64,000 nucleotides of DNA from assembly GCA_964473815.1 (NCBI GenBank), contig CAYYQK010000004.1, positions 68,493 to 132,492 of the forward strand, given 5' to 3'. Below, piece by piece: positions 228 through 53,123 of the stretch. Positions within the stretch are counted from its first letter, which is position 1. Each line of letters opens with the position of its first letter. Both the position numbers and the translations under genes were made by a program. Below the pieces are notes generated by a model. That model had not been told where the DNA came from and did not search any database. It saw only the letters and a list, made by a program, of their open reading frames with translations. This stretch comes from an uncultured Candidatus Saccharibacteria bacterium (GTDB taxonomy: Bacteria > Patescibacteriota > Doudnabacteria > UBA920).

Positions 228-1466
228 CTAAAGTTTTGATAAAGATTCCGCCACTTCTTTTAAACTCAACTCATTCTGCTCCCGAGTTTCCAAATTCTTC
301 AGTTGTGCCTTGCCAGATTTCGCTTCTTCCTCACCAATAATCACCGCAAATGGAATACCTTTGCTCTCAGCATATTTAAATTGCTTATCTAGTTTTGTAG
401 TTTCGTAATAGAACTCAACGTTCACGCCTTGCGCACGTAACTCACTGGCAAACTTTAGATATTCTTTTTGCAAATTTTCATTCTGATTTAAAATCAGAGC
501 CTTAATTGGTTGTACTAAACTCAACGCGCCCATTTCTTCCAAAGCTTGGAGCAAACGATCTACGCCGATACTGCCACCAACTGCTGGTAAAGGTTTATCA
601 CTAAACTGATCCACCAAACCATCATAACGGCCGCCACTACAAACACTGCCAAAATCTTTGGCATCATCTAAGAAAATTTCAAACACGGTGCCCGTGTAAT
701 AATCGAGACCACGCGCGATGCTGGCATCAAATTCAACTTTGCCTTGCAAACCATAATTGCTAAGCAGTTCAATTATTTTTTTCACATTTTCTGGAGCCGC
801 GCCGTTACCACCAACCAATTCTTTTGCACGCGCGATTTCATCATCAGAAATACCTGCATCTTGCATCTCTTTTACAATCCCATCCAAACCAATCTTGTCG
901 ATTTTGTCGATCGCGCGAATTGTATCTACAGAAAAATCTTTAAACACGCTGCGGTCATTCAAACGCACCCGATAATTTTTCACGCCAACTGCTTCCAGCG
1001 CAGAACACAAACATGCGATCACATCAACGTCTGACAAAATTGAATCTGTACCAACAGCATCCACGTCACACTGGTAGAACTCGCGGAGTCTCCCCTTCTG
1101 CGGGTTGTCTGCGCGCCATACTGGCGCAATTTGGTAGCGCTTAAAAGGCAAGGTCAATTGCCCCTGATTCTGCGCAACGTAACGAGCCAAAGGCACAGTT
1201 AAATCGTAACGCATCGCTACCTCACGATCACCTTTATCTTTAAAACTGTAAACTAATTTTTCATCTTCACCGTACTTGCCCATCAAAATATCTTTGTATT
1301 CCAAAACCGGAGTCGACAACGGCAAAAAACCAAACCGTTCAAAAACGCTCTGGATCTTTGTAAACACTTGCTGACGAGTGAGTTGTTCCATCGGACCGTA
1401 GTCACGAAAACCCTTCAACAAGCGCGGTTCAATTTTGTTATTCAGTTTGTCATTATTTTCAGACAT
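228..1466 (-). CDS. hisS: histidyl-tRNA synthetase (class II)
   Basis: Motif 2 FKRYQIAPVWRADNPQKGRLREFYQCDVDAVG, motif 3 GGRYDGL, C-terminal anticodon-binding domain. Start chosen at MSENNDKL (ATG at 1464-1466) rather than the upstream extension in the ORF track. Stop TAG at 228-230. Confidence 0.9.
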   Translation of the reverse strand: MSENNDKLNNKIEPRLLKGFRDYGPMEQLTRQQVFTKIQSVFERFGFLPLSTPVLEYKDILMGKYGEDEKLVYSFKDKGDREVAMRYDLTVPLARYVAQNQGQLTLPFKRYQIAPVWRADNPQKGRLREFYQCDVDAVGTDSILSDVDVIACLCSALEAVGVKNYRVRLNDRSVFKDFSVDTIRAIDKIDKIGLDGIVKEMQDAGISDDEIARAKELVGGNGAAPENVKKIIELLSNYGLQGKVEFDASIARGLDYYTGTVFEIFLDDAKDFGSVCSGGRYDGLVDQFSDKPLPAVGGSIGVDRLLQALEEMGALSLVQPIKALILNQNENLQKEYLKFASELRAQGVNVEFYYETTKLDKQFKYAESKGIPFAVIIGEEEAKSGKAQLKNLETREQNELSLKEVAESLSKL

Positions 1467-1527: not shown

Positions 1528-2283
1528 CTAATTGATGAATAAGCCATCATCGGTTTTATTTCTCCATGGGACATCACAGAAAGGATAAACCAAATGACTA
1601 AGACATATATCGTATCGTAGTACCCGATTAAAAAACCATGCCGCGGCACCGCTCAGGCTCACAGGTTCCACCACACTCTCTTCGGCCAAATACGACTGCT
1701 CAACTTCGCGTCGTATATCTGAAACCTCCTCTCGCCGGAGTCCGTGACCTGGAGTAGATAAATACATTTCCCATTGAACCCGCGAATGGAGTACGTGGAA
1801 ATCCACCTCGTTAGAACTTCGAGGGTATGTGAGAATTCCATTGAGGACTTCGCTTATTTCGTGCCTTGGTTCCGAAAACATATATGGCTGAGGCATATAG
1901 GTGATGAAAGGATACTTTGGAATCTTTCCGGTCTCGGGCCAAGATTTAAATGGCTTATAGCGTTCAGCGAAGGCATATAAATACCGGTCTATCGCATAGG
2001 CCAAACAACGACCCGCATAGAATGGTATTACGATCTGCTCATAACCGAAATTGTCGACTTCGGGTAGTTGAGATTGTTGCAAATGACCTGAAATTTTCTT
2101 CAAAAAATGTTCACCCAAATTTTCTTTCATGGAATCTGCCGCTGTCCAGAGTGTTTGTTTGTCGTAAGCAAGCACAACAAACCACGCTGAAGGATTTGCT
2201 ACTGCCATGACTCCGATCCTCACTCCGTCTTCACCGACAGTCGTAAGAATCCGATTTACAATCGGATCGGGAATGTCCAACAT
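1528..2283 (-). CDS. hypothetical protein
   Basis: ORF 1528..2343. Internal start MLDIPDPIV at 2283 is preceded by GGAGGAACATTT-ATG (strong SD), so the shorter CDS is preferred. No recognisable family. Confidence 0.5.
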   Translation of the reverse strand: MLDIPDPIVNRILTTVGEDGVRIGVMAVANPSAWFVVLAYDKQTLWTAADSMKENLGEHFLKKISGHLQQSQLPEVDNFGYEQIVIPFYAGRCLAYAIDRYLYAFAERYKPFKSWPETGKIPKYPFITYMPQPYMFSEPRHEISEVLNGILTYPRSSNEVDFHVLHSRVQWEMYLSTPGHGLRREEVSDIRREVEQSYLAEESVVEPVSLSGAAAWFFNRVLRYDICLSHLVYPFCDVPWRNKTDDGLFIN

Positions 2284-2356
2284 AAATGTTCCTCCGTGGT
2301 TTATTTCTGAGCAGATTGTACCTATTCTAAAATTTTGAGTCAAACAAAAAACAGGC

Positions 2357-8051: not shown

Positions 8052-8167
8052 TTATGTTCACCTCACTTCAAATGTTTAAGCCAGCGCTCTGTTTCGCCTA
8101 TTGCGAAAAGCCGGCGCTGCGCTTTAGTCATTTACTATTATACAATTTTTCTTAATAAATAGTCAAA

Positions 8168-8201
8168 TAACAAAAAAAATCACCCTCATAAGTAAGGGTG
8201 A
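8168..8201 (-). terminator. intrinsic terminator after the HIT gene
   Basis: tcaccct…agggtga hairpin, followed on the minus strand by U8. Confidence 0.6.
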
Positions 8202-8215
8202 TTCAATTCTGCTTT

Positions 8216-8560
8216 TTAAACTTCTAATTGCTTCCCGCCAAGTAAGTGCAAATGCAAATGCGGGATAATCTGACCACCTTCTTTTCCATTATTGAAGATG
8301 AGTTTGTAACCAGACTCAGAGACCCCGGCCTCAGCCGCGTAATTTTTAGCAGCGAAGATTATCTCGGCGATTAAATTTTTATCAGACTCAGCAAGCCCAT
8401 TTACCGAAACAATGTGACGCTTTGGCATCACCAAAACATGCACAGGTGCTTTAGGCATAATGTCCTTAATGATAATCACATCATCATTTTCAAACAAAAT
8501 ATTCGAAGGTGTTTGCTTGTTAACAATACTGCAAAACAAACAATCGTGGTTTGATTCCAT
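8216..8560 (-). CDS. HIT-family (histidine triad) nucleotide hydrolase
   Basis: C-terminal HLHLHLLGG triad. Start placed at MESNHDCLFCSIV (ATG 8558-8560), which matches HIT N-termini. The ORF track extends to a TTG at 8602, which would overlap the upstream gene by 32 nt. Confidence 0.75.
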   Translation of the reverse strand: MESNHDCLFCSIVNKQTPSNILFENDDVIIIKDIMPKAPVHVLVMPKRHIVSVNGLAESDKNLIAEIIFAAKNYAAEAGVSESGYKLIFNNGKEGGQIIPHLHLHLLGGKQLEV

Positions 8561-8570
8561 ATCTTTATAT

Positions 8571-9875
8571 TTAGCGTTCAAGTCGTTTTCGGACTTCTGC
8601 AATTATCTTATCATATGAAAAGACTTCTTGCATGCCACTTTTTACGTCTCGTAAAATAACCATATCATCCATGGCTTCCTTTTGCCCCATAATCAGGGCA
8701 ATTGGAGCCTTGCTTTCCTCGGCTTGTTTAAGCTGATTTTTTACACCAACAGTTCCAAAGTGGTCGTGGACGCGAATATTCTCCCCTATTAGGTCGCGGA
8801 ACAATCGCAAAGAACGCTTCGCCGCCAATTCTCCCAGAGGAACTAAAAATACTTCGCTATGATTTTCAATCTTCGTATCGATTTCAGAAAGTTCCATGGC
8901 GCGAGCAAGCGCTGCAAGATTGCCATTGAATCCAAAAGCAGGACTTGACTTGCCATCAATATTTTTTAAAAGCATATCGTGATGCGCAGCTTCACCTAAC
9001 ACAACCGAATTGTTACCCTTCTTGTACTTTACACTCAAGTTTGTGCCAGTGCTGCCTTCGGGGCCAATATATAATTGATTCAGCTGGTAAGGCAGTCCGA
9101 GTTCGTCGAGAGCTTCTAAAATATCTGTAAATTGTTTGCGGGCTTCATTGTCTAAAAAGTCGACTATAGCTGGCGCCTCAGCTGCAATTAACTGACAATC
9201 TAAATTTTCGCAGCGCAAAATATTTAACACGCGGCCACGCATGTGCGCATTACAGTTATCACACAATTCAAACTCTTTACCTTTCAAATAATCTTTCAGT
9301 ACATTTTGGTAAGCATTCTGTACTTGCATATCGCCGGCGGTATTTATTTCCAACTGCAAATCTTCTGCTGCCAAACCAAGTCGCTGAGTTAAATCCCACA
9401 CCGCACTAACAACCTGCGCTTCAGTTAAGTGATTAAAGCTCCCGAACACTTCAAATCCAAATTGGTAATTAAAATGCAAAGCCTGCTTGGCATCAGTTTC
9501 AACAACGTTCCCTAAATATAACCACTTCGAAAGTGGTTGGACTTCAGCAACTTTATTCTGTACATAGTGACGCAACACCGAAGGTAACAAAGCTGCGCGA
9601 ACGCCCATTGGTTTACCGCTTTGCTGGGCGAAAACTATTTTTTCTAAAACTTCTGGCTGATTTTTATAGTAATCAGCGTAAACCCTTTGCTCTTCTAAAA
9701 TGGCGGTTTCCACTGTTAAAAAGCCGTAAAGTTGGGCTACAGTGCGAACCTGTTCCATTATTAAGTTCCATTGCGGCGAAGTTTGGGTAGTAATATCCCG
9801 CAAACCGCTGATTGTTCCAGCTTTAGGTACTCGAACAGGAGCCGCAATAACGGTTTTTTTGGCAGTCTTTTGCAT
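8571..9875 (-). CDS. HisRS-like paralog with degenerate catalytic motifs (HisZ-like / pseudo-synthetase) retaining the anticodon-binding domain
   Basis: Aligns block by block with hisS in this window. N-terminus PKAGTISGLRD vs GFRDYGP. Motif 2 [25 protein letters not shown] corresponds to SKWLYLGNVVETDAKQALHFNYQ. Motif 3 GGRYDGL corresponds to GEAAHHDML. Extra CxxC…C…C insertion (LCDNCNAHMRGRVLNILRCENLDC). Class-II anticodon-binding-domain-like C-terminus. Confidence 0.6.
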   Translation of the reverse strand: MQKTAKKTVIAAPVRVPKAGTISGLRDITTQTSPQWNLIMEQVRTVAQLYGFLTVETAILEEQRVYADYYKNQPEVLEKIVFAQQSGKPMGVRAALLPSVLRHYVQNKVAEVQPLSKWLYLGNVVETDAKQALHFNYQFGFEVFGSFNHLTEAQVVSAVWDLTQRLGLAAEDLQLEINTAGDMQVQNAYQNVLKDYLKGKEFELCDNCNAHMRGRVLNILRCENLDCQLIAAEAPAIVDFLDNEARKQFTDILEALDELGLPYQLNQLYIGPEGSTGTNLSVKYKKGNNSVVLGEAAHHDMLLKNIDGKSSPAFGFNGNLAALARAMELSEIDTKIENHSEVFLVPLGELAAKRSLRLFRDLIGENIRVHDHFGTVGVKNQLKQAEESKAPIALIMGQKEAMDDMVILRDVKSGMQEVFSYDKIIAEVRKRLER

Positions 9876-9899: not shown

Positions 9900-10490
9900 T
9901 TAATTAAAAATCGCTGCTGGGAAATGAGGGAATCCAAGAGTACTTAAAGGGAAAACGCGTAGCCAAGCTGTTCCGACAATATCATGCTTTGGCAGTATCC
10001 CCCACACCCGAGAATCACTGGAGGCAAGACGGTTATCACCCAAAACAAAATATTCATCACTGCCAAGTTCTACAACTTGATCGCTACCAAACGTAATATC
10101 CTGATTAGAAAGATAGTTTTCGGTCAAAGCAGAACCATCCGGATGCTCTTTATTGTAAATATAAACTTTGCCATTCGCCACTTTTACTTTTTCACCTGGC
10201 AAACCAACTACACGCTTGATGAAATACTGCGATGTATCTTTTGGATAATGGAAAACAATCACATCACCACGTTGCGGATCATGCAAACGATAAGAAATTT
10301 TGTTTACAACTAAGTATTCCCGGTTATGAAAATTCGGCACCATCGAATTTCCCGAGACAATGAAAGGTTCGGCAATAAAAAAACGAAACACCAACATCAC
10401 AATGAAGGCGACTATAATAATTCGGGCGACTTCCCACAGAAATGATCCGACGGTCGGGGTTTTTTCAGTTAAAATTTCTTCGTCAGACAT
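9900..10490 (-). CDS. lepB: signal peptidase I
   Basis: S26 boxes SGNSMVPNF and GDNRLASSDSR, N-terminal TM anchor. Confidence 0.85.
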   Translation of the reverse strand: MSDEEILTEKTPTVGSFLWEVARIIIVAFIVMLVFRFFIAEPFIVSGNSMVPNFHNREYLVVNKISYRLHDPQRGDVIVFHYPKDTSQYFIKRVVGLPGEKVKVANGKVYIYNKEHPDGSALTENYLSNQDITFGSDQVVELGSDEYFVLGDNRLASSDSRVWGILPKHDIVGTAWLRVFPLSTLGFPHFPAAIFN

Positions 10491-10580
10491 GTTTTATTTC
10501 ACTAAATGATTTTGATAGATAACATTGAAACTATACCACTGGCGTAAAGGCAATGCAAGAGGTATAATATTGTGGTATTT

Positions 10581-15177: not shown

Positions 15178-16278
15178 ATGTATTTAAATAATCCTGACCT
15201 AGAGCCTTTCTATCTATATATACTCTCTCGCCTGCCGGTTCGGCGATTAGATATTTTTGAACATTGGCGCGCCCAGGCCGGAACATTTGAAGCCGTTTAT
15301 CTATCTAGCGAGAGACAACTTAAGGAATTAGGTTGGGGCTATGAACTAGTCTTAAAATTTCGGGAAATAAAAAATGAGTGGTCTGTGGAAAAATTGGTAA
15401 ATGTCGTAGAGAAAACCAATGTGAGCATGGTGACATATTTAGATACGGACTATCCTGCAATGCTTCGAGAAATTACTGACCCGCCGCCCGTGCTATTTTT
15501 TCGGGGGCAGTTAAATAAAAGTGAGGCATGCATTGCGATTGTTGGATCCAGAAAAATGTCTAATTATGGCTTAGGCATGATCCCAAAAATTGCTGGCCCT
15601 TTGGTCAATGCTGGAGTGACAATTGTATCAGGTCTTGCTTATGGCATTGATAGCGCAGCACATACAGAAAGCGTTAATCGACAAGCGCGAACAATAGCAG
15701 TGCTTGGAACAGGGGTAGACGAAAAAAGTATCTATCCGCGTGGGCATTTAAAACTGGCTCATCAAATTTTAGAAACAGGCGGATTACTAATTTCCGAGCA
15801 ACCACCCGGGACACCTGGGCTACCGCATCATTTTGTAGCGCGCAACCGAATTATTGCCGGTCTTTCACTGGGCGTAATTATAGTAGAATGCAAAGTCAAA
15901 AGCGGCGCGTTAATTACTGCGGACTACGCAGCGGATTTTAACAGAAATTTGTACGCTGTACCTGGCCCAGCGTATTCAGCACTCAGCGCTGGTCCTCATG
16001 AATTAATTCGTAACGGCGCAATGTTAATCACTTGCGGTGAAGATGTGTTGCAAGATATCAAACTTGATCTGGCGCAGCTTCCGGAAACTGCAAAGCCAAA
16101 ACCAAAATTCTCGGAATTAGAACAACGTGTGTTAGAATGTATGCAAGACGAGCCTCAAAGTGCTACGGAAATCATTGTTGCAACAAACGCATCAACAGAA
16201 ATTGTGATGCAAACAATTACATTGCTTGAACTACGCGGCGCGATCAAAGAAATAAATAATAAATATTATAAGACGTGA
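15178..16278 (+). CDS. dprA: DNA-processing protein DprA (Smf)
   Basis: Rossmann-like DprA core LGMIPKIAGPLVNAGVTIVSGLAYGIDSAAHTESV. Confidence 0.85.
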   Translation: MYLNNPDLEPFYLYILSRLPVRRLDIFEHWRAQAGTFEAVYLSSERQLKELGWGYELVLKFREIKNEWSVEKLVNVVEKTNVSMVTYLDTDYPAMLREITDPPPVLFFRGQLNKSEACIAIVGSRKMSNYGLGMIPKIAGPLVNAGVTIVSGLAYGIDSAAHTESVNRQARTIAVLGTGVDEKSIYPRGHLKLAHQILETGGLLISEQPPGTPGLPHHFVARNRIIAGLSLGVIIVECKVKSGALITADYAADFNRNLYAVPGPAYSALSAGPHELIRNGAMLITCGEDVLQDIKLDLAQLPETAKPKPKFSELEQRVLECMQDEPQSATEIIVATNASTEIVMQTITLLELRGAIKEINNKYYKT

Positions 16279-16613
16279 ACTATCCTTTATCTTTCCGCGA
16301 AGTCGATAAGCCTACCTTTGATCGAATAGAACGCGGCGAAAAAACTATAGAAACCCGGGCTGGAATGCCAGAATACCTAAAGTTTAAAGTCGGTGATGTT
16401 CTAGACATAAGCTGTGGGGAAAATCACATTAGCAAAACAATTGAAGAAGTCTTACGTTTTGATTCACCTGAACAACTTTTAGAAAAATTTTCTCCCGACG
16501 AAATCATGCCTGAAGGTACTACTAAGGAAGAGGCAATCGCCAAATGGAATAGCTTTCCAAATTATCCGGAACGGATTAAACATTATGGGATAATTGCGTG
16601 GCGTTTAAAGTAA
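16275..16613 (+). CDS. ASCH/PUA-like domain protein
   Basis: Small β-barrel pattern (ERGEKTIETRAG…KVGDVLDI). 4-nt overlap with dprA. Confidence 0.45.
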   Translation: MNYPLSFREVDKPTFDRIERGEKTIETRAGMPEYLKFKVGDVLDISCGENHISKTIEEVLRFDSPEQLLEKFSPDEIMPEGTTKEEAIAKWNSFPNYPERIKHYGIIAWRLK

Positions 16614-20028: not shown

Positions 20029-20466
20029 ATGACTCAAAAAATTATCACTTTTTTGGTATCTGCTGTCATGATTGGATCTATTGCGACACCAGCTCTAGCG
20101 ACTACCCAAACTTCACACGTAACCAATCCTAATCTAAACACAGCTTGTATCGGTACAGCGGTTACTGCAAGAGAAACTGCTATCAGCGCGGCTTATACCA
20201 CTTACAGCAAAGCCATTGCTGATGCTTACAAGGCTCGCGGTACTGCCCTTACCAGTGCTTGGTCATTGACCAACTGGCAGGAAATTAACAATGCAGTGAA
20301 AGCAGCATGGAAAGCTTTCAAAACCAGCAGTAAGACTGCCACAAAAAACTGGCAAACTGGCCGCCGCACAGCTTGGACGCAATTCAATAAAGACCTTCAA
20401 GGCTGCCATGCCTCATCAAGTGTACAAAACTCCGAATCTGTTAATGATGAGCCGGTCGGGCAATAA
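20029..20466 (+). CDS. hypothetical secreted protein
   Basis: Signal peptide MTQKIITFLVSAVMIGSIATPALA. Extended -10 TGTATAAT at 19968-19975. Confidence 0.5.
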   Translation: MTQKIITFLVSAVMIGSIATPALATTQTSHVTNPNLNTACIGTAVTARETAISAAYTTYSKAIADAYKARGTALTSAWSLTNWQEINNAVKAAWKAFKTSSKTATKNWQTGRRTAWTQFNKDLQGCHASSSVQNSESVNDEPVGQ

Positions 20467-34425: not shown

Positions 34426-35607
34426 ATGACAAAACCAAGAACATGGTATTTAACTGCATCATTCGATACGGCGTTTGCTTATCGCAAGGATGGCAGTATC
34501 TTGGATGAAAGTGTATTTGCTAAACATCATTTACATCGGGCGCAACACTATCACATTGCGCGTGAGGAATTTGGCTTTCAGCAATTTCGTGATGGCATTA
34601 TTTGGTCACAGTTTATAACTGGGTCATGTCAGGCAGATTGGAGCAAGTTTGAACATCATTTGGAAGAACTTGCGAAGCTGAGCTGTCTGAATGGTCAACC
34701 AGAAATCGATTTGGTGTTGTTACACTATGGCATGCCGCATTTGCAAGCTACGGATATGCTCAACGGGCGCTTCGCAGACTTCCTGGAACTAATCGCTTAT
34801 TTAGTTACGACTAAATGGCGGGAATGTTTCAGTAGTTATGTGGTGTCCGTAGAAAACGGCTATGCGACTGCCATGCAAACCGATTTGCAACAATGGCGCT
34901 ATAGCGAAACGGTTGCAGAGAAAAAACTATCCTGGTGGGAATTATTTGAGATGCGCATGAAGGCGGTCATCCGCATGGCAAAAGCTCTCAAGCAATTCGA
35001 TCCGAAAACACCCAGGCTGGCATGTGAGCCGTTTTACAAAAGCGATGTCAGTTTTCGTGACCAGGTTCGGTCTTTGCGCACCATGCTCGGATATCCGGAC
35101 AAGGTTGCTCAAAAATTTTCTCCCAGCCAGGCAACAACTTTTGGAGGTGAACCTGATTTGCTGACCGACATCGGAGTAAATTACTACGGCAATCAGGCGG
35201 ATGATTTTGATAATCCGCAATGGCCACTCTCGAAGTTGTTGCTGCGGGCATGGAAACGATTTCCAAATTACAATCTGCGCATTGCCGAAACCGGTAATTG
35301 CCAGGTTGAAAACCTGGGGATCAGCACTGAACGTTGGCTGGAAATGCTCGATCACGAACTTAACCTGGCTAACAGCCAAGGTGCGAACGTGCAAAACGTT
35401 ACCTGGGCACCGTTTCTTACCATCGAAGACTTTACCGAACCGGGGATACTATCACCGGGATCGTTAATGGATTCGCAAACATTACGCCCAGATCCACAAC
35501 TCGTAAAAGTGGTAAGGCAATACACAGACAAAGCAGCTGCTCTCCTACAACAGGGCAGCTTTTTTTATCTAGAGTTTATTTTAATTCAATTAAATCTGCT
35601 AAATTAG
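34426..35607 (+). CDS. TIM-barrel glycoside-hydrolase-like protein (GH1-like, divergent)
   Basis: LRIAETGN resembles the GH1 nucleophile motif I-T-E-N-G. SD AAGGGGG. Weak. Confidence 0.3.
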   Translation: MTKPRTWYLTASFDTAFAYRKDGSILDESVFAKHHLHRAQHYHIAREEFGFQQFRDGIIWSQFITGSCQADWSKFEHHLEELAKLSCLNGQPEIDLVLLHYGMPHLQATDMLNGRFADFLELIAYLVTTKWRECFSSYVVSVENGYATAMQTDLQQWRYSETVAEKKLSWWELFEMRMKAVIRMAKALKQFDPKTPRLACEPFYKSDVSFRDQVRSLRTMLGYPDKVAQKFSPSQATTFGGEPDLLTDIGVNYYGNQADDFDNPQWPLSKLLLRAWKRFPNYNLRIAETGNCQVENLGISTERWLEMLDHELNLANSQGANVQNVTWAPFLTIEDFTEPGILSPGSLMDSQTLRPDPQLVKVVRQYTDKAAALLQQGSFFYLEFILIQLNLLN

Positions 35608-38431: not shown

Positions 38432-39877
38432 TCAGAATGAGAAAGTTTCGATGAGCCGGAATCGTAACACTCCTGCCCCTGACTGATTCCACAGATACCC
38501 AATTCCCACGCGCGGCCAGTTTTTACGAGGGAATTTGTATTCGAGCAAAGGACCTGTGGTCCAAGCTAGTGGCTTGGTCGCCGTTTTGCTTAAAACAGTT
38601 TCCCAGCCAGGAAAGAGCCCTCCAAGTCGGTCTTTCAGTTTCGCTTTCGCAAAAGTCTGATTCACGACGGTAATGTTTAAGTGGCGATTTCCCGGACTAC
38701 CTCGAACAGTTCTTTCGAAATTGATAACCGGAGTGTTTGTAGCGATTGCACTAAACCCCGGAAATCGTTTCGGCAAGCTAAACGCATTAAAGACTTGCAG
38801 CCCTCCGACAACTGATGTGCTGTCTGTGCCGCGAACCTTGTCGTGCGTTTGCCGAAAACCAGCCACGCCGATTAAAGTCGTATGCTTAGTTTTCAGGAAC
38901 CGTTTTCCACCCGTGACTAGAGCATTCCACGACAAGTTATTTGAACCGAAGATATTTTCGGACATCCAACCAGTCGGAGATGTAATAGTCACCCGCAACT
39001 GTCGCTGGGGGTTTGGTCCGGCGCCAGCAACGATTTCGCCATACCGAGCATCTGTCTGAATGGTCCAATCAGCAGTTGCCTTACCTTTTCCGTTTTGCTT
39101 GGATCCACTCTGGCCGAATGCTTTCGCACCGCCGGCTGCGCCGACTGACAAAACCAATGCCAAAGTGTAACCTGCAAACTCCAAGGCTTTCTGCAACGAC
39201 CTCACTGGTGTACCAAATGGATACCTCCACGCCGTGAAAAGCCACGTCGGAGTAGCCAATGGCAACCGAGTCAAAGATAAAGCTTCGCCGATCAAGTTGT
39301 AACCTTTCTTCTTTGCCTTGTAACACATCATGAGTAGCATGAGTGCGCAGGAAATGAGATAGGCCACGGCAAGTGATTGCCATATCGGCGTACGATCAAT
39401 CGGGACTTTGGCTGCACTAATCGCTGGAGAAAAAAATTGTTCTTGAGCTAAAGAAGTTGTTTCCATACTGAATCGGGAAATCTCAGCAGCCTTACCACCT
39501 CTTTTCTCAATATCCTGCATGCGCTCTGAAAGGCTGGCAGCTGTTTCGGTCGGCATAAGGCCGTAACGCGAAAAGCTTTCGATGGCATCCTCGGCGATCC
39601 TCATCTGGGCCAACCAAGTGTAGAACTGCTCAGGCTCGGCTTTCACCGGCATTGCCGCTTCGAGTTCCTTGATCTTAAGCACTAGTTGCGAAGTGTCTTT
39701 ATAAGGATACAACGCCAGTTGTTTCTCACCTGTGGGATCGTTTTTGTTCTGCGCCCCAAACCAGAGGCACACGAAAAACACCAACATGATCAGTCCGCCG
39801 AAAACCATATGGAGCGTACTCCATTCTGATTTTTGTTCAGCCTGATCATAACGATAGTCAAAATGATTATTTCTCAC
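38432..39877 (-). CDS. hypothetical membrane protein with a C-terminal β-rich domain ending …LRFRLIETFSF
   Basis: GTG start with AGGAGG SD. TM helices near residues 25-42 and 175-195. C-terminal half Gly/Thr/Asn-rich with alternating hydrophobic residues and a terminal Phe. Confidence 0.45.
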   Translation of the reverse strand: MRNNHFDYRYDQAEQKSEWSTLHMVFGGLIMLVFFVCLWFGAQNKNDPTGEKQLALYPYKDTSQLVLKIKELEAAMPVKAEPEQFYTWLAQMRIAEDAIESFSRYGLMPTETAASLSERMQDIEKRGGKAAEISRFSMETTSLAQEQFFSPAISAAKVPIDRTPIWQSLAVAYLISCALMLLMMCYKAKKKGYNLIGEALSLTRLPLATPTWLFTAWRYPFGTPVRSLQKALEFAGYTLALVLSVGAAGGAKAFGQSGSKQNGKGKATADWTIQTDARYGEIVAGAGPNPQRQLRVTITSPTGWMSENIFGSNNLSWNALVTGGKRFLKTKHTTLIGVAGFRQTHDKVRGTDSTSVVGGLQVFNAFSLPKRFPGFSAIATNTPVINFERTVRGSPGNRHLNITVVNQTFAKAKLKDRLGGLFPGWETVLSKTATKPLAWTTGPLLEYKFPRKNWPRVGIGYLWNQSGAGVLRFRLIETFSF

Positions 39878-45836: not shown

Positions 45837-45963
45837 TCTAAATTTTCTATGAGTAAGCCAAGTCTTTGACTTTCTGGCAAAGATATGATAAAGTTTTATT
45901 TATCAACCTACGTGCGTTCTGAGGTTGAGATTTGTCACAGAAAACTTCAAGGAGAAAAAACGG

Positions 45964-46539
45964 ATGAGAACAATCAAGGCGTTGTTGTTTGTTGTCAGTT
46001 TAGCCATCGCATTGGTCGCCGGCCTGTATGCCAATCCGCCGACCGTTACGAAAAACGAAGTAGGGAATCCTTCCCAAAGCTCACCACCAGCCGCCGTCAC
46101 CGCGACTTTTACAAAGACGGCAGCAGGGGCGATGAATGTTACCGAGATCAATCCAACCGTGGAAGTCAGACAGACATCCCCGCCGGTCGCGAACTCTTTC
46201 GCGAATACGACGATCTCGAGCTTGGTCAATGTCGACTATTCATTAACGGCAACGGCGTTCAATACGGTAAATGCTTCGCCGATCGACCGTACAATTAATG
46301 TACTTGTGGGATTCAGGATACGGCCGCCCATTGTGCTGATCTCGACGACAATGGCAGGCCGATCCGCCGCGACGCCACACTATGCAGGGCACTTCGCTCT
46401 GCCGGCGAATACAGACGTAGGAAAAGGAGAAACGGCTGACGCCAACAAAATTGTGGCGAGCTCGTCATTCAATTCCTTTGCCGAGGACACACCGACCGCC
46501 GTCCGCGTCGATGACGTACGGTTCGTCAAACGTGAATAA
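45964..46539 (+). CDS. hypothetical secreted Ser/Thr/Ala/Pro-rich protein
   Basis: AAGGAG-9-ATG at MRTIKALLFVVSLAIALVAG (signal peptide). TTGACT-17-TAAAGT upstream. GC-rich relative to neighbours. Confidence 0.5.
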   Translation: MRTIKALLFVVSLAIALVAGLYANPPTVTKNEVGNPSQSSPPAAVTATFTKTAAGAMNVTEINPTVEVRQTSPPVANSFANTTISSLVNVDYSLTATAFNTVNASPIDRTINVLVGFRIRPPIVLISTTMAGRSAATPHYAGHFALPANTDVGKGETADANKIVASSSFNSFAEDTPTAVRVDDVRFVKRE

Positions 46540-52169: not shown

Positions 52170-53123
52170 ATGGAAACAATACTTTCAGGCGTTCAGGCCA
52201 CAGGCCGAATGCATATCGGTAACTATTTGGGGGCGCTGAAGCAATTCGTAGACATTCAAAATGAAGGCAAATTGCAATGCTATTTTTTCGTCGCTGATTT
52301 ACACGCCTTAACTGTGCCGCGCGAACCAAAAAAACTTCGCCAGGATACTTTAGAAGTGGTGGCAGAATATATTGCTGCTGGTCTCGACCCAAAAAAGTCA
52401 GTAATTTTTATCCAAAATCATGTTTTAGAACATGCTGAACTGGCTTGGATTTTTGATTGTCTCATTTCGGTTGGGGAACTCGAACGAATGACTCAGTTTA
52501 AAGACAAGGGCGGCGGCAATGCTGGCTTACTCACCTATCCGGTTCTTATGGCAGCTGACATTTTATTATACAAACCAAACTTTGTGCCAGTTGGTGAAGA
52601 CCAGGTGCAACATATTGAACTCACTCGCATCATTGCGCGTAAGTTTAACAATCAATTTGGAAAAGTTTTCCCAGAACCAAAACCTTTTGTCCGCAAACCT
52701 CTGCGCTTAATGAGCCTGAAAAATCCATCAAAGAAGATGAGCAAGACTGGCGATGATCCCATTTACATGGACGACACGCCAAGCGATGTTGAAGCAAAGT
52801 TAAAAAAAGCCGTGACTGCAAGCGGCGGTGAAGGTGGCGCAGGTGTAGAAAATTTGATGTTCCTTCTCGAACAATTCGGCAGCAAAGAAAATGTTGGCCA
52901 ATTCCGCGGAGCAATTAAGGACGGTTCAATTCGCTATAGCGATTTAAAGATGGAACTCGCCCACTCAATTGCTGATTACTTTGCAGACTTCCGTAAGCGC
53001 AAAAAAGAATTGCTCAATGATAAAGCTGGGTTGGCAGAAATTCTGGCAGATGGCGCAGAGCGAGCCCGGGAGATCGCCCACGAAACAATGCTTGAAGTCA
53101 AACAAAAAACCGGCCTGCTATAA
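52170..53123 (+). CDS. trpS: tryptophanyl-tRNA synthetase
   Basis: TGRMHIGNYLGAL (HIGH-type) and KMSKTGDD (KMSKS). TGcTAAAAT lies 6 nt before the ATG. Confidence 0.9.
   Translation: METILSGVQATGRMHIGNYLGALKQFVDIQNEGKLQCYFFVADLHALTVPREPKKLRQDTLEVVAEYIAAGLDPKKSVIFIQNHVLEHAELAWIFDCLISVGELERMTQFKDKGGGNAGLLTYPVLMAADILLYKPNFVPVGEDQVQHIELTRIIARKFNNQFGKVFPEPKPFVRKPLRLMSLKNPSKKMSKTGDDPIYMDDTPSDVEAKLKKAVTASGGEGGAGVENLMFLLEQFGSKENVGQFRGAIKDGSIRYSDLKMELAHSIADYFADFRKRKKELLNDKAGLAEILADGAERAREIAHETMLEVKQKTGLL

Follow-up and report, generated by a model that had tools for sequence, protein, structure and literature searches.

Class-II synthetase scaffolds have been kept for the binding of nucleic acids or partners after catalytic loss, as in SLIMP and the accessory subunit of Pol gamma. 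Non-charging proteins derived from aminoacyl-tRNA synthetases (aaRS) have been reviewed in 2022 together with aaRS duplications, and under histidyl-tRNA synthetase (HisRS) that review lists only HisZ (PMC9437257). The HisRS-like domain of GCN2 has been described as devoid of the elements needed to form an adenylate and as a presumed binder of uncharged tRNA (PMC11363354). In this study, we performed a computational analysis of a 64,000-nucleotide stretch (hereafter the window) of contig CAYYQK010000004.1 from an uncultured Candidatus Saccharibacteria bacterium, placed by GTDB in the Doudnabacteria of the Patescibacteriota. The window holds two genes of the HisRS family. One encodes a working HisRS; the other, packed between lepB and the gene of a HIT hydrolase, encodes a predicted catalytically dead HisRS homolog, here named pseudo-HisRS, which we classed among the aaRS-derived pseudoenzymes. 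No description of a Patescibacteria pseudo-HisRS was found in our literature searches.

The loss of catalysis is evident at nearly every position that matters for charging. Pfam annotations placed a tRNA-synt_His domain (PF13393, 2e-15) and an HGTP_anticodon domain (PF03129, 5e-9) in pseudo-HisRS, and its best sequence matches in the PDB were the HisRS of S. aureus and E. coli. Against the hisS equivalog TIGR00442 of NCBIfam it scored 181.4 bits, under the cutoff of 286.75. Alignment to the E. coli and S. aureus enzymes and 140 representatives showed that 2 of 12 catalytic positions are kept, the replaced ones being E83, T85, R113, R121, R123, R259, Y263, Y264, R311 and Y312 (E. coli numbering). 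Specifically, RPEGT has become RAALLPS, and the histidine-binding E83 and T85 are lost; motif 2, FRxERPQxGRxRQF, has become VVETDAKQALHFNYQF, with loss of the ATP-binding R113, R121 and R123; RGLDYY has become GPEGST, so that the catalytic R259 of the HisA motif is deleted and Y263 and Y264 are lost; and motif 3, GGRYD, has become GEAAHHD, with loss of R311. Each of the 18 family members in the alignment (53-80% identity with the window protein) showed these same losses, which are therefore neither chance nor a sequencing artefact. In addition, the residues of the former active site differed between two fully degenerate subfamilies (GEAxYHD in one and GxGGNY in the other), so a shared new catalytic pocket is not evident.

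The AlphaFold model of pseudo-HisRS (pLDDT 83, pTM 0.71) displayed a full-length HisRS fold, with the catalytic domain, the insertion domain and the C-terminal HGTP anticodon-binding domain (ABD) all present; the beta-sheet scaffold is kept as well, and so is the motif-1 region, the site of the dimer interface in HisRS. The top Foldseek matches of the model were the bacterial HisRS 1qe0, 1adj, 4e51 and 4rdx, the last a tRNA complex (TM-score 0.67-0.76), and the HisRS-like domain of GCN2 (8t7t) followed at rank 47 (E = 5.7e-20). These results bear out a first-pass annotation of the window, made from the sequence alone, which had described a degenerate HisRS homolog that lost the arginines of motifs 2 and 3 and retained a class-II anticodon-binding domain.

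The other gene, which the same annotation had called a canonical hisS, proved to be one. It scored 414 bits against TIGR00442 (cutoff 287) and keeps 11 of the 12 catalytic positions, the twelfth being an Asp typical of its type. Its best PDB matches were 6nhi (8e-85) and human cytoplasmic HisRS 4phc (3.5e-74), with S. aureus HisRS reaching only 2.7e-42, and its identity to pseudo-HisRS is 20%. The low identity and the different PDB affinities argue that the two genes represent two deep HisRS types and are not recent paralogs. The earlier framing of the dead gene as a paralog of the canonical hisS thus appears inverted: the dead gene would be the descendant of the bacterial-type ancestor, and it is the active hisS that is eukaryote/archaea-like. 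On long contigs, the family gene is always accompanied by the eukaryote-like hisS. Both genes are carried by 25 contigs, recognised by identical bp sizes in both homolog lists, among them the window's contig of 135,145 bp and others of 244,466, 242,297, 323,147, 216,756, 204,301 and 111,891 bp; in 20 family loci the eukaryote-like hisS lies inside the same fetched locus (13-17 kb). A metagenome scan for the eukaryote-like hisS gave two new ftsZ-hisS adjacencies among the 80 loci listed, which did not include the two long JGI contigs behind L001 and L089. With regard to the gene start, the hisS open reading frame (ORF) runs to a GTG at 1649 (473 aa) and a public protein of 100% identity has 440 aa; because the homology with HisRS begins only from the ATG at 1466 (412 aa), translation probably starts further downstream than annotated.

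A protein search with pseudo-HisRS returned 526 homologs, of which the best 120 are all full-length and 53-100% identical. When one genome per GTDB species was scanned, the family was found with an intact ORF in at least 121 species, and the informatively labelled records belong to Candidatus Doudnabacteria or the Patescibacteria group. At 83 loci, tblastn with the window proteins outlined a conserved block in which pth, der and LCP, on one strand, face lepB, pseudo-HisRS, HIT, rpsU, yqeY, ftsA and ftsZ on the opposite one. The HisRS slot of all 83 family loci holds a fully degenerate form; lepB lies upstream of the slot in every locus with upstream sequence, and HIT lies downstream in 78 of the 83. 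A profile search was performed over 1.84 billion representatives and gave 896 matches below 1e-30. The top 150 of these were examined and form a continuum of fully degenerate, partly degenerate and fully canonical HisRS, the partly degenerate forms keeping GGRYD or GGRHD with RGLDYY and motif 2 lost.

One of the representatives, P0161 (L087/L088), has all 12 catalytic positions. There, pth is followed by lepB-HisRS-HIT-yqeY-ybeY-ftsA-ftsZ, and FtsZ is 44% identical to that of the window. The occurrence of a canonical HisRS in the same slot indicates that the window gene is a positional ortholog: the bacterial-type hisS that Patescibacteria had ancestrally would have decayed there without leaving its slot; and because this canonical HisRS sits between lepB and HIT, the hisS-HIT adjacency would be older than the catalytic decay. 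Further representatives lie after lepB as well. P0136 (9/12; L090) is followed by pilin-like genes and not by HIT and rpsU, P0141 (9/12; L086) stands on a short contig with lepB as its only neighbour, and the fully degenerate P0143 (L084) and P0151 (L089) lie between lepB and rpsU without HIT. In a neighbour-joining (NJ) tree, the Doudnabacteria-type family and the P0143/P0151 subfamily formed one fully degenerate clade with 0-5 of 12 residues kept. Elsewhere in the tree, degenerate sequences (3-9/12) were scattered among canonical ones, which suggests that catalytic decay was recurrent across lineages.

Our analyses point to the following order of events. A second, eukaryote/archaea-like HisRS, represented by the working hisS of the window, would have taken over aminoacylation. 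The resident bacterial-type hisS would then have lost its histidine-binding, ATP-binding and catalytic residues without being deleted, and strong purifying selection would have preserved it as a protein without catalysis. We regard this evolutionary part, namely takeover followed by loss of catalysis with the gene retained, as highly probable.

Pseudo-HisRS is under strong purifying selection. Its dN against seven relatives was 0.15-0.20 (0.06-0.12 in the ABD), with dS saturated in all seven comparisons and the dN/dS analysis restricted to dN and an upper-bound argument, and the whole-protein identity of pseudo-HisRS tracks that of the active hisS. Relative to the window's copy, pseudo-HisRS of the 83 family loci had a mean identity of 79% in the ABD (minimum 71%), 62% in the insertion domain and 46-50% in the catalytic-like core; for the active hisS the means were 64% in the catalytic core and 50% in the ABD. 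Constraint is inverted between the two proteins, resting on the ABD in the former and on the catalytic core in the latter. In the structure of T. thermophilus HisRS with tRNA-His, E386-E388 read G34, K397 and K399 read G36, and Q404 reads U35 (PMC4357726). Through the E. coli alignment, and with identical ungapped spacing, these readers map to Q398-K399-E400, R409/V411 and Q416 of pseudo-HisRS, where E400, R409 and Q416, at the positions of T. thermophilus E388, K397 and Q404, are invariant in the family. The ABD signature LI-GQKE...VI-RD..SG-QE...E-KKRL is common to catalytically intact and dead members.

The insertion domain clamps the acceptor stem in real HisRS, and in pseudo-HisRS it carries a Cys4 zinc-ribbon-like element. 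This element had been noted at first as an extra insertion, a description that holds only if the active hisS of the window is the standard of comparison. S. aureus HisRS has a matching segment, 'CSDC...ILDCK', in its own insertion domain, and catalytically intact relatives carry the element too, as do nearly all of the top 150 representatives, in every class; it is thus an ancestral feature of the bacterial-type HisRS insertion domain. At the other end of the protein, the 23 residues ahead of the first conserved motif comprise five K/R and no D/E. Patescibacteria HisRS have such a basic tail whether canonical or degenerate, and bacterial HisRS outside the Candidate Phyla Radiation (CPR) lack it. 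Very long basic N-extensions of 42-72 residues with up to 27 K/R were observed in P0134, P0138, P0155 and P0188, Patescibacteria HisRS of this lineage; they are reminiscent of the RNA-binding tails appended to synthetases in eukaryotes.

With the anticodon readers in place, pseudo-HisRS may still bind tRNA, probably tRNA-His via its GUG anticodon, without charging it, and could serve as a tRNA-binding, sequestering or sensing factor, or in hand-over. This functional part, a non-charging tRNA binder, is advanced tentatively, and the whole statement, with evolutionary and functional parts joined, we hold to be moderately probable. A bolder version appears doubtful to us. According to it, pseudo-HisRS would be a stand-alone, essential, non-catalytic HisRS relic, produced by repeated in-situ decay after displacement, that acts as a dedicated tRNA-His (GUG) binder and a bacterial counterpart of the GCN2 sensor, and it would sense or sequester uncharged tRNA-His or pass tRNA-His to the foreign-type synthetase.

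Several points weigh against the proposed displacement and tRNA binding. First, pseudo-HisRS has lost the motif-2 loop residues with which real HisRS holds the acceptor end, and any tRNA binding would therefore be partial. Second, the hyper-conservation of the ABD could be explained just as well by a protein partner or a different RNA. Third, no tRNA-His gene was present in the window or in the 58 related loci scanned, where only tRNA-Val(CAC) turned up. Furthermore, the NJ tree is rough, and the representatives were drawn with a profile from degenerate sequences and are enriched for degenerate matches.

The alternative that survives best, although we consider it unlikely, is a moonlighting role unrelated to tRNA, in which the ABD and the zinc ribbon bind an mRNA operator, rRNA or the ribosome, or a protein of the envelope/division cluster, and the gene was retained for a second function that the ancestral enzyme had already possessed. 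Decay with retention seems recurrent in the NJ tree, which would suggest such a second essential ancestral role, and the ABD is better conserved in pseudo-HisRS than in the active enzyme. In addition, yeast HisRS is reported to bind its own mRNA via an anticodon mimic (PMC6542539). However, the residues retained in pseudo-HisRS are exactly those that read the anticodon, and the gene context gives no partner candidate beyond inherited synteny. The leader of lepB also lacks significant structure: an anticodon mimic or operator RNA there was rejected, as 10481..10580 folded no better than shuffles (z = -0.23). With respect to this upstream region, lepB is directly preceded by a tRNA-Val(CAC) gene of the same orientation as the operon in 31 of the 58 related loci scanned (for example L003:5270-5346, L029:6648-6724 and, in a sister-subfamily locus, L089:9063-9139), and this tRNA gene is missing from the window (10491-10571) and from the closest relatives of the window. 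Its anticodon, CAC, is reverse-complementary to GUG, the anticodon for His, probably by coincidence.

A partnership with the HIT hydrolase, which the first-pass annotation had called plausible for a tRNA-binding or regulatory pseudo-synthetase, is improbable, even though the tRNA binding itself is plausible. In such a pair, the dead HisRS would work with the HinT-type hydrolase, e.g., by offering it a substrate linked to a tRNA or a nucleotide. HinT proteins hydrolyse aminoacyl-adenylates made by the class-II LysRS, and the close packing noted at first was accurate. lepB, pseudo-HisRS and HIT run head to tail, all on the minus strand, with a gap of 24 nt between the first two; the longest HIT ORF (8602..8216) has a TTG start and overlaps the pseudo-HisRS gene by 32 nt, and the HIT start is likely the ATG at 8560, 10 nt past the pseudo-HisRS stop. 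A hairpin after HIT and a promoter before rpsU make the three genes look like one terminator-closed transcription unit. The HIT protein scored 86 bits against the E. coli HinT equivalog model of NCBIfam, under the cutoff of 206 bits. As a side observation, the terminator-like hairpin is directly followed by the rpsU promoter (8137-8204), so that the conserved block comprises two or more transcription units.

The frequent succession of HIT in family loci also speaks for the pairing, yet other evidence does not. In a distant lineage, a HisRS with all 12 catalytic positions has the same HIT neighbour, and the adjacency therefore predates the catalytic loss. HIT is gone from the slot, with the HisRS-like gene staying, in five family loci (L001, L027, L028, L048 and L069) and in L084, L089 and L090; within the arrangement singled out earlier, lepB is constant and HIT is not. 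The block of about 10 genes is all syntenic, and the adjacency carries little specific information. Moreover, pseudo-HisRS is without every residue that makes an adenylate and therefore cannot supply an aminoacyl-adenylate to HIT. The co-transcription of pseudo-HisRS with lepB and HIT would represent an ancient Patescibacteria gene order, present when the slot still held an active HisRS, and does not argue for any new mechanism that depends on HIT. Where HIT is missing, large genes unrelated to it were observed in its place, namely a 1308-aa AAA_5/MoxR-like protein at L001:7319-11245 and pilin-like surface proteins of 852 aa and 2264 aa at L090:11736-21127, which suggests that the position after the HisRS gene is an insertion hot spot.

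That pseudo-HisRS is a HisZ-like regulatory subunit of ATP phosphoribosyltransferase has very little probability. HisZ is a known catalytically dead HisRS relative, and some database records of the homologs are named 'ATP phosphoribosyltransferase regulatory subunit', others 'histidyl-tRNA synthetase'; but pseudo-HisRS scored 55.9 bits against the hisZ equivalog TIGR00443 (cutoff 271.65), with the remaining HisZ models below 40 bits, compared with 181 bits for the hisS model, its ABD is full and hyper-conserved, its position appears to be that of hisS, and no HisZ structure was among the top 50 Foldseek matches. Model scores, architecture, synteny and structural matches together led us to reject a HisZ assignment, in agreement with the first-pass annotation, which had doubted an ordinary HisZ and seen no histidine-biosynthesis gene: no such domain was detected in the 36 window ORFs scanned, and none was called in the related loci shown. 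To our knowledge, Patescibacteria are generally without amino-acid biosynthesis, which also counts against HisZ. Finally, a rewired active site, by which the protein would still be an aaRS or another adenylate-forming enzyme, fits the intact fold, the kept Q138 and E142 of the QFGFEV strand and the new invariant residues E295, H299 and Y137 near the former pocket, but is scarcely credible: none of the arginines of motifs 2 and 3, R259 or the residues that bind histidine (E83, T85, Y263 and Y264) remains, the degenerate subfamilies differ in what stands in their stead, and the motif-2 loop varies within the family.

Table 1. Positions of the two HisRS-type genes, the neighbours of pseudo-HisRS and its retained parts in the window (aa, residues of pseudo-HisRS).
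Feature	Position	Strand	Description
Working HisRS	228..1466	-	Eukaryote/archaea/Bacteroidota-like type; catalytic motifs all intact
Near-consensus sigma-70-like promoter	8137..8166	-	TTGACT, 18-nt spacer, TATAAT; precedes rpsU
Intrinsic-terminator-like hairpin	8177..8204	-	12-bp stem and T run; would close the lepB/pseudo-HisRS/HIT unit
HIT hydrolase, HinT-type	8216..8560	-	Last gene of the operon; Pfam HIT 9.1e-23, intact HLHLHLL motif
Pseudo-HisRS gene	8571..9875	-	434 aa; bacterial-type HisRS fold, 10/12 catalytic residues replaced
Anticodon-binding domain (ABD)	8574..8870	-	aa 336-434; most constrained part of the protein
Cys4 zinc-ribbon-like element	9195..9263	-	C205, C208, C222, C227; in the insertion domain; invariant in the family alignment
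Disordered Lys/Arg-rich N-terminal tail	9783..9875	-	aa 1-31, pLDDT <50
lepB (signal peptidase I)	9900..10490	-	First gene of the operon; Peptidase_S26 3.5e-48 (Pfam)

Elsewhere in the window, five sizeable ORFs had no Pfam match at E <= 1e-4 (16275-16613, 20029-20466, 34426-35607 and 45925-46539 on the plus strand and 38432-39877 on the minus strand); they are typical unannotated CPR proteins. The ORF at 1528-2343 (minus strand) partly overlaps the over-extended hisS ORF and lay outside the Pfam scan. A short class-I tRNA synthetase of the Trp/Tyr type (317 aa, PF00579 2e-64) is encoded at 52170-53123 on the plus strand, and archaeal-type TrpRS and TyrRS have been reported in CPR bacteria (PMC5370408).

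Patescibacteria genomes are extremely reduced, and a 434-aa protein has been kept in them under strong selection after enzymatic loss, which implies a second important role for this tRNA synthetase scaffold. If the interpretation is true, pseudo-HisRS would represent, in a free-living bacterium, a HisRS pseudoenzyme of full length whose ABD is preserved, distinct from HisZ and independent of GCN2. It would further illustrate a xenologous aaRS displacement in which the displaced gene was repurposed and not lost, apparently more than once. The two names in use for the homologs in databases mislead metabolic reconstructions of CPR bacteria.

Compared with bacterial-type HisRS (S. aureus 1qe0, T. 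thermophilus 1adj/4rdx and E. coli 1kmm), pseudo-HisRS has the same domain order and fold, at the TM-scores given above, the same motif-1 region, a Cys-containing insertion domain and an HGTP ABD with E, K/R and Q as anticodon readers, and canonical HisRS of related Patescibacteria occupy the same genomic slot. It differs in the replacement of 10 of the 12 residues for catalysis and for the binding of ATP and histidine, in failing the hisS cutoff, in having its constraint moved from the catalytic core to the ABD, and in coexisting with a separate active HisRS of another type. HisZ is likewise a bacterial, catalytically inactive HisRS relative. In contrast, HisZ works with the short-form HisG in histidine biosynthesis, whereas no his genes were seen among the window ORFs around pseudo-HisRS, and pseudo-HisRS, with its full conserved ABD, would descend in situ from hisS and not from the HisZ lineage. 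SLIMP and the Pol gamma accessory subunit come from other parent synthetases, are eukaryotic or organellar and have known partners, unlike pseudo-HisRS. By analogy, the closest functional counterpart would be the HisRS-like domain of GCN2, which is also HisRS-derived and keeps both a catalytic-like domain and an ABD. According to its description, that domain is fused to a protein kinase, a pseudokinase and a C-terminal domain, and its ABD is without the anticodon-decoding side chains (PMC11363354); pseudo-HisRS, on the other hand, is a stand-alone protein that keeps E400, R409 and Q416. Pseudo-HisRS would have a bacterial origin independent of GCN2, which ranks low among its structural matches.

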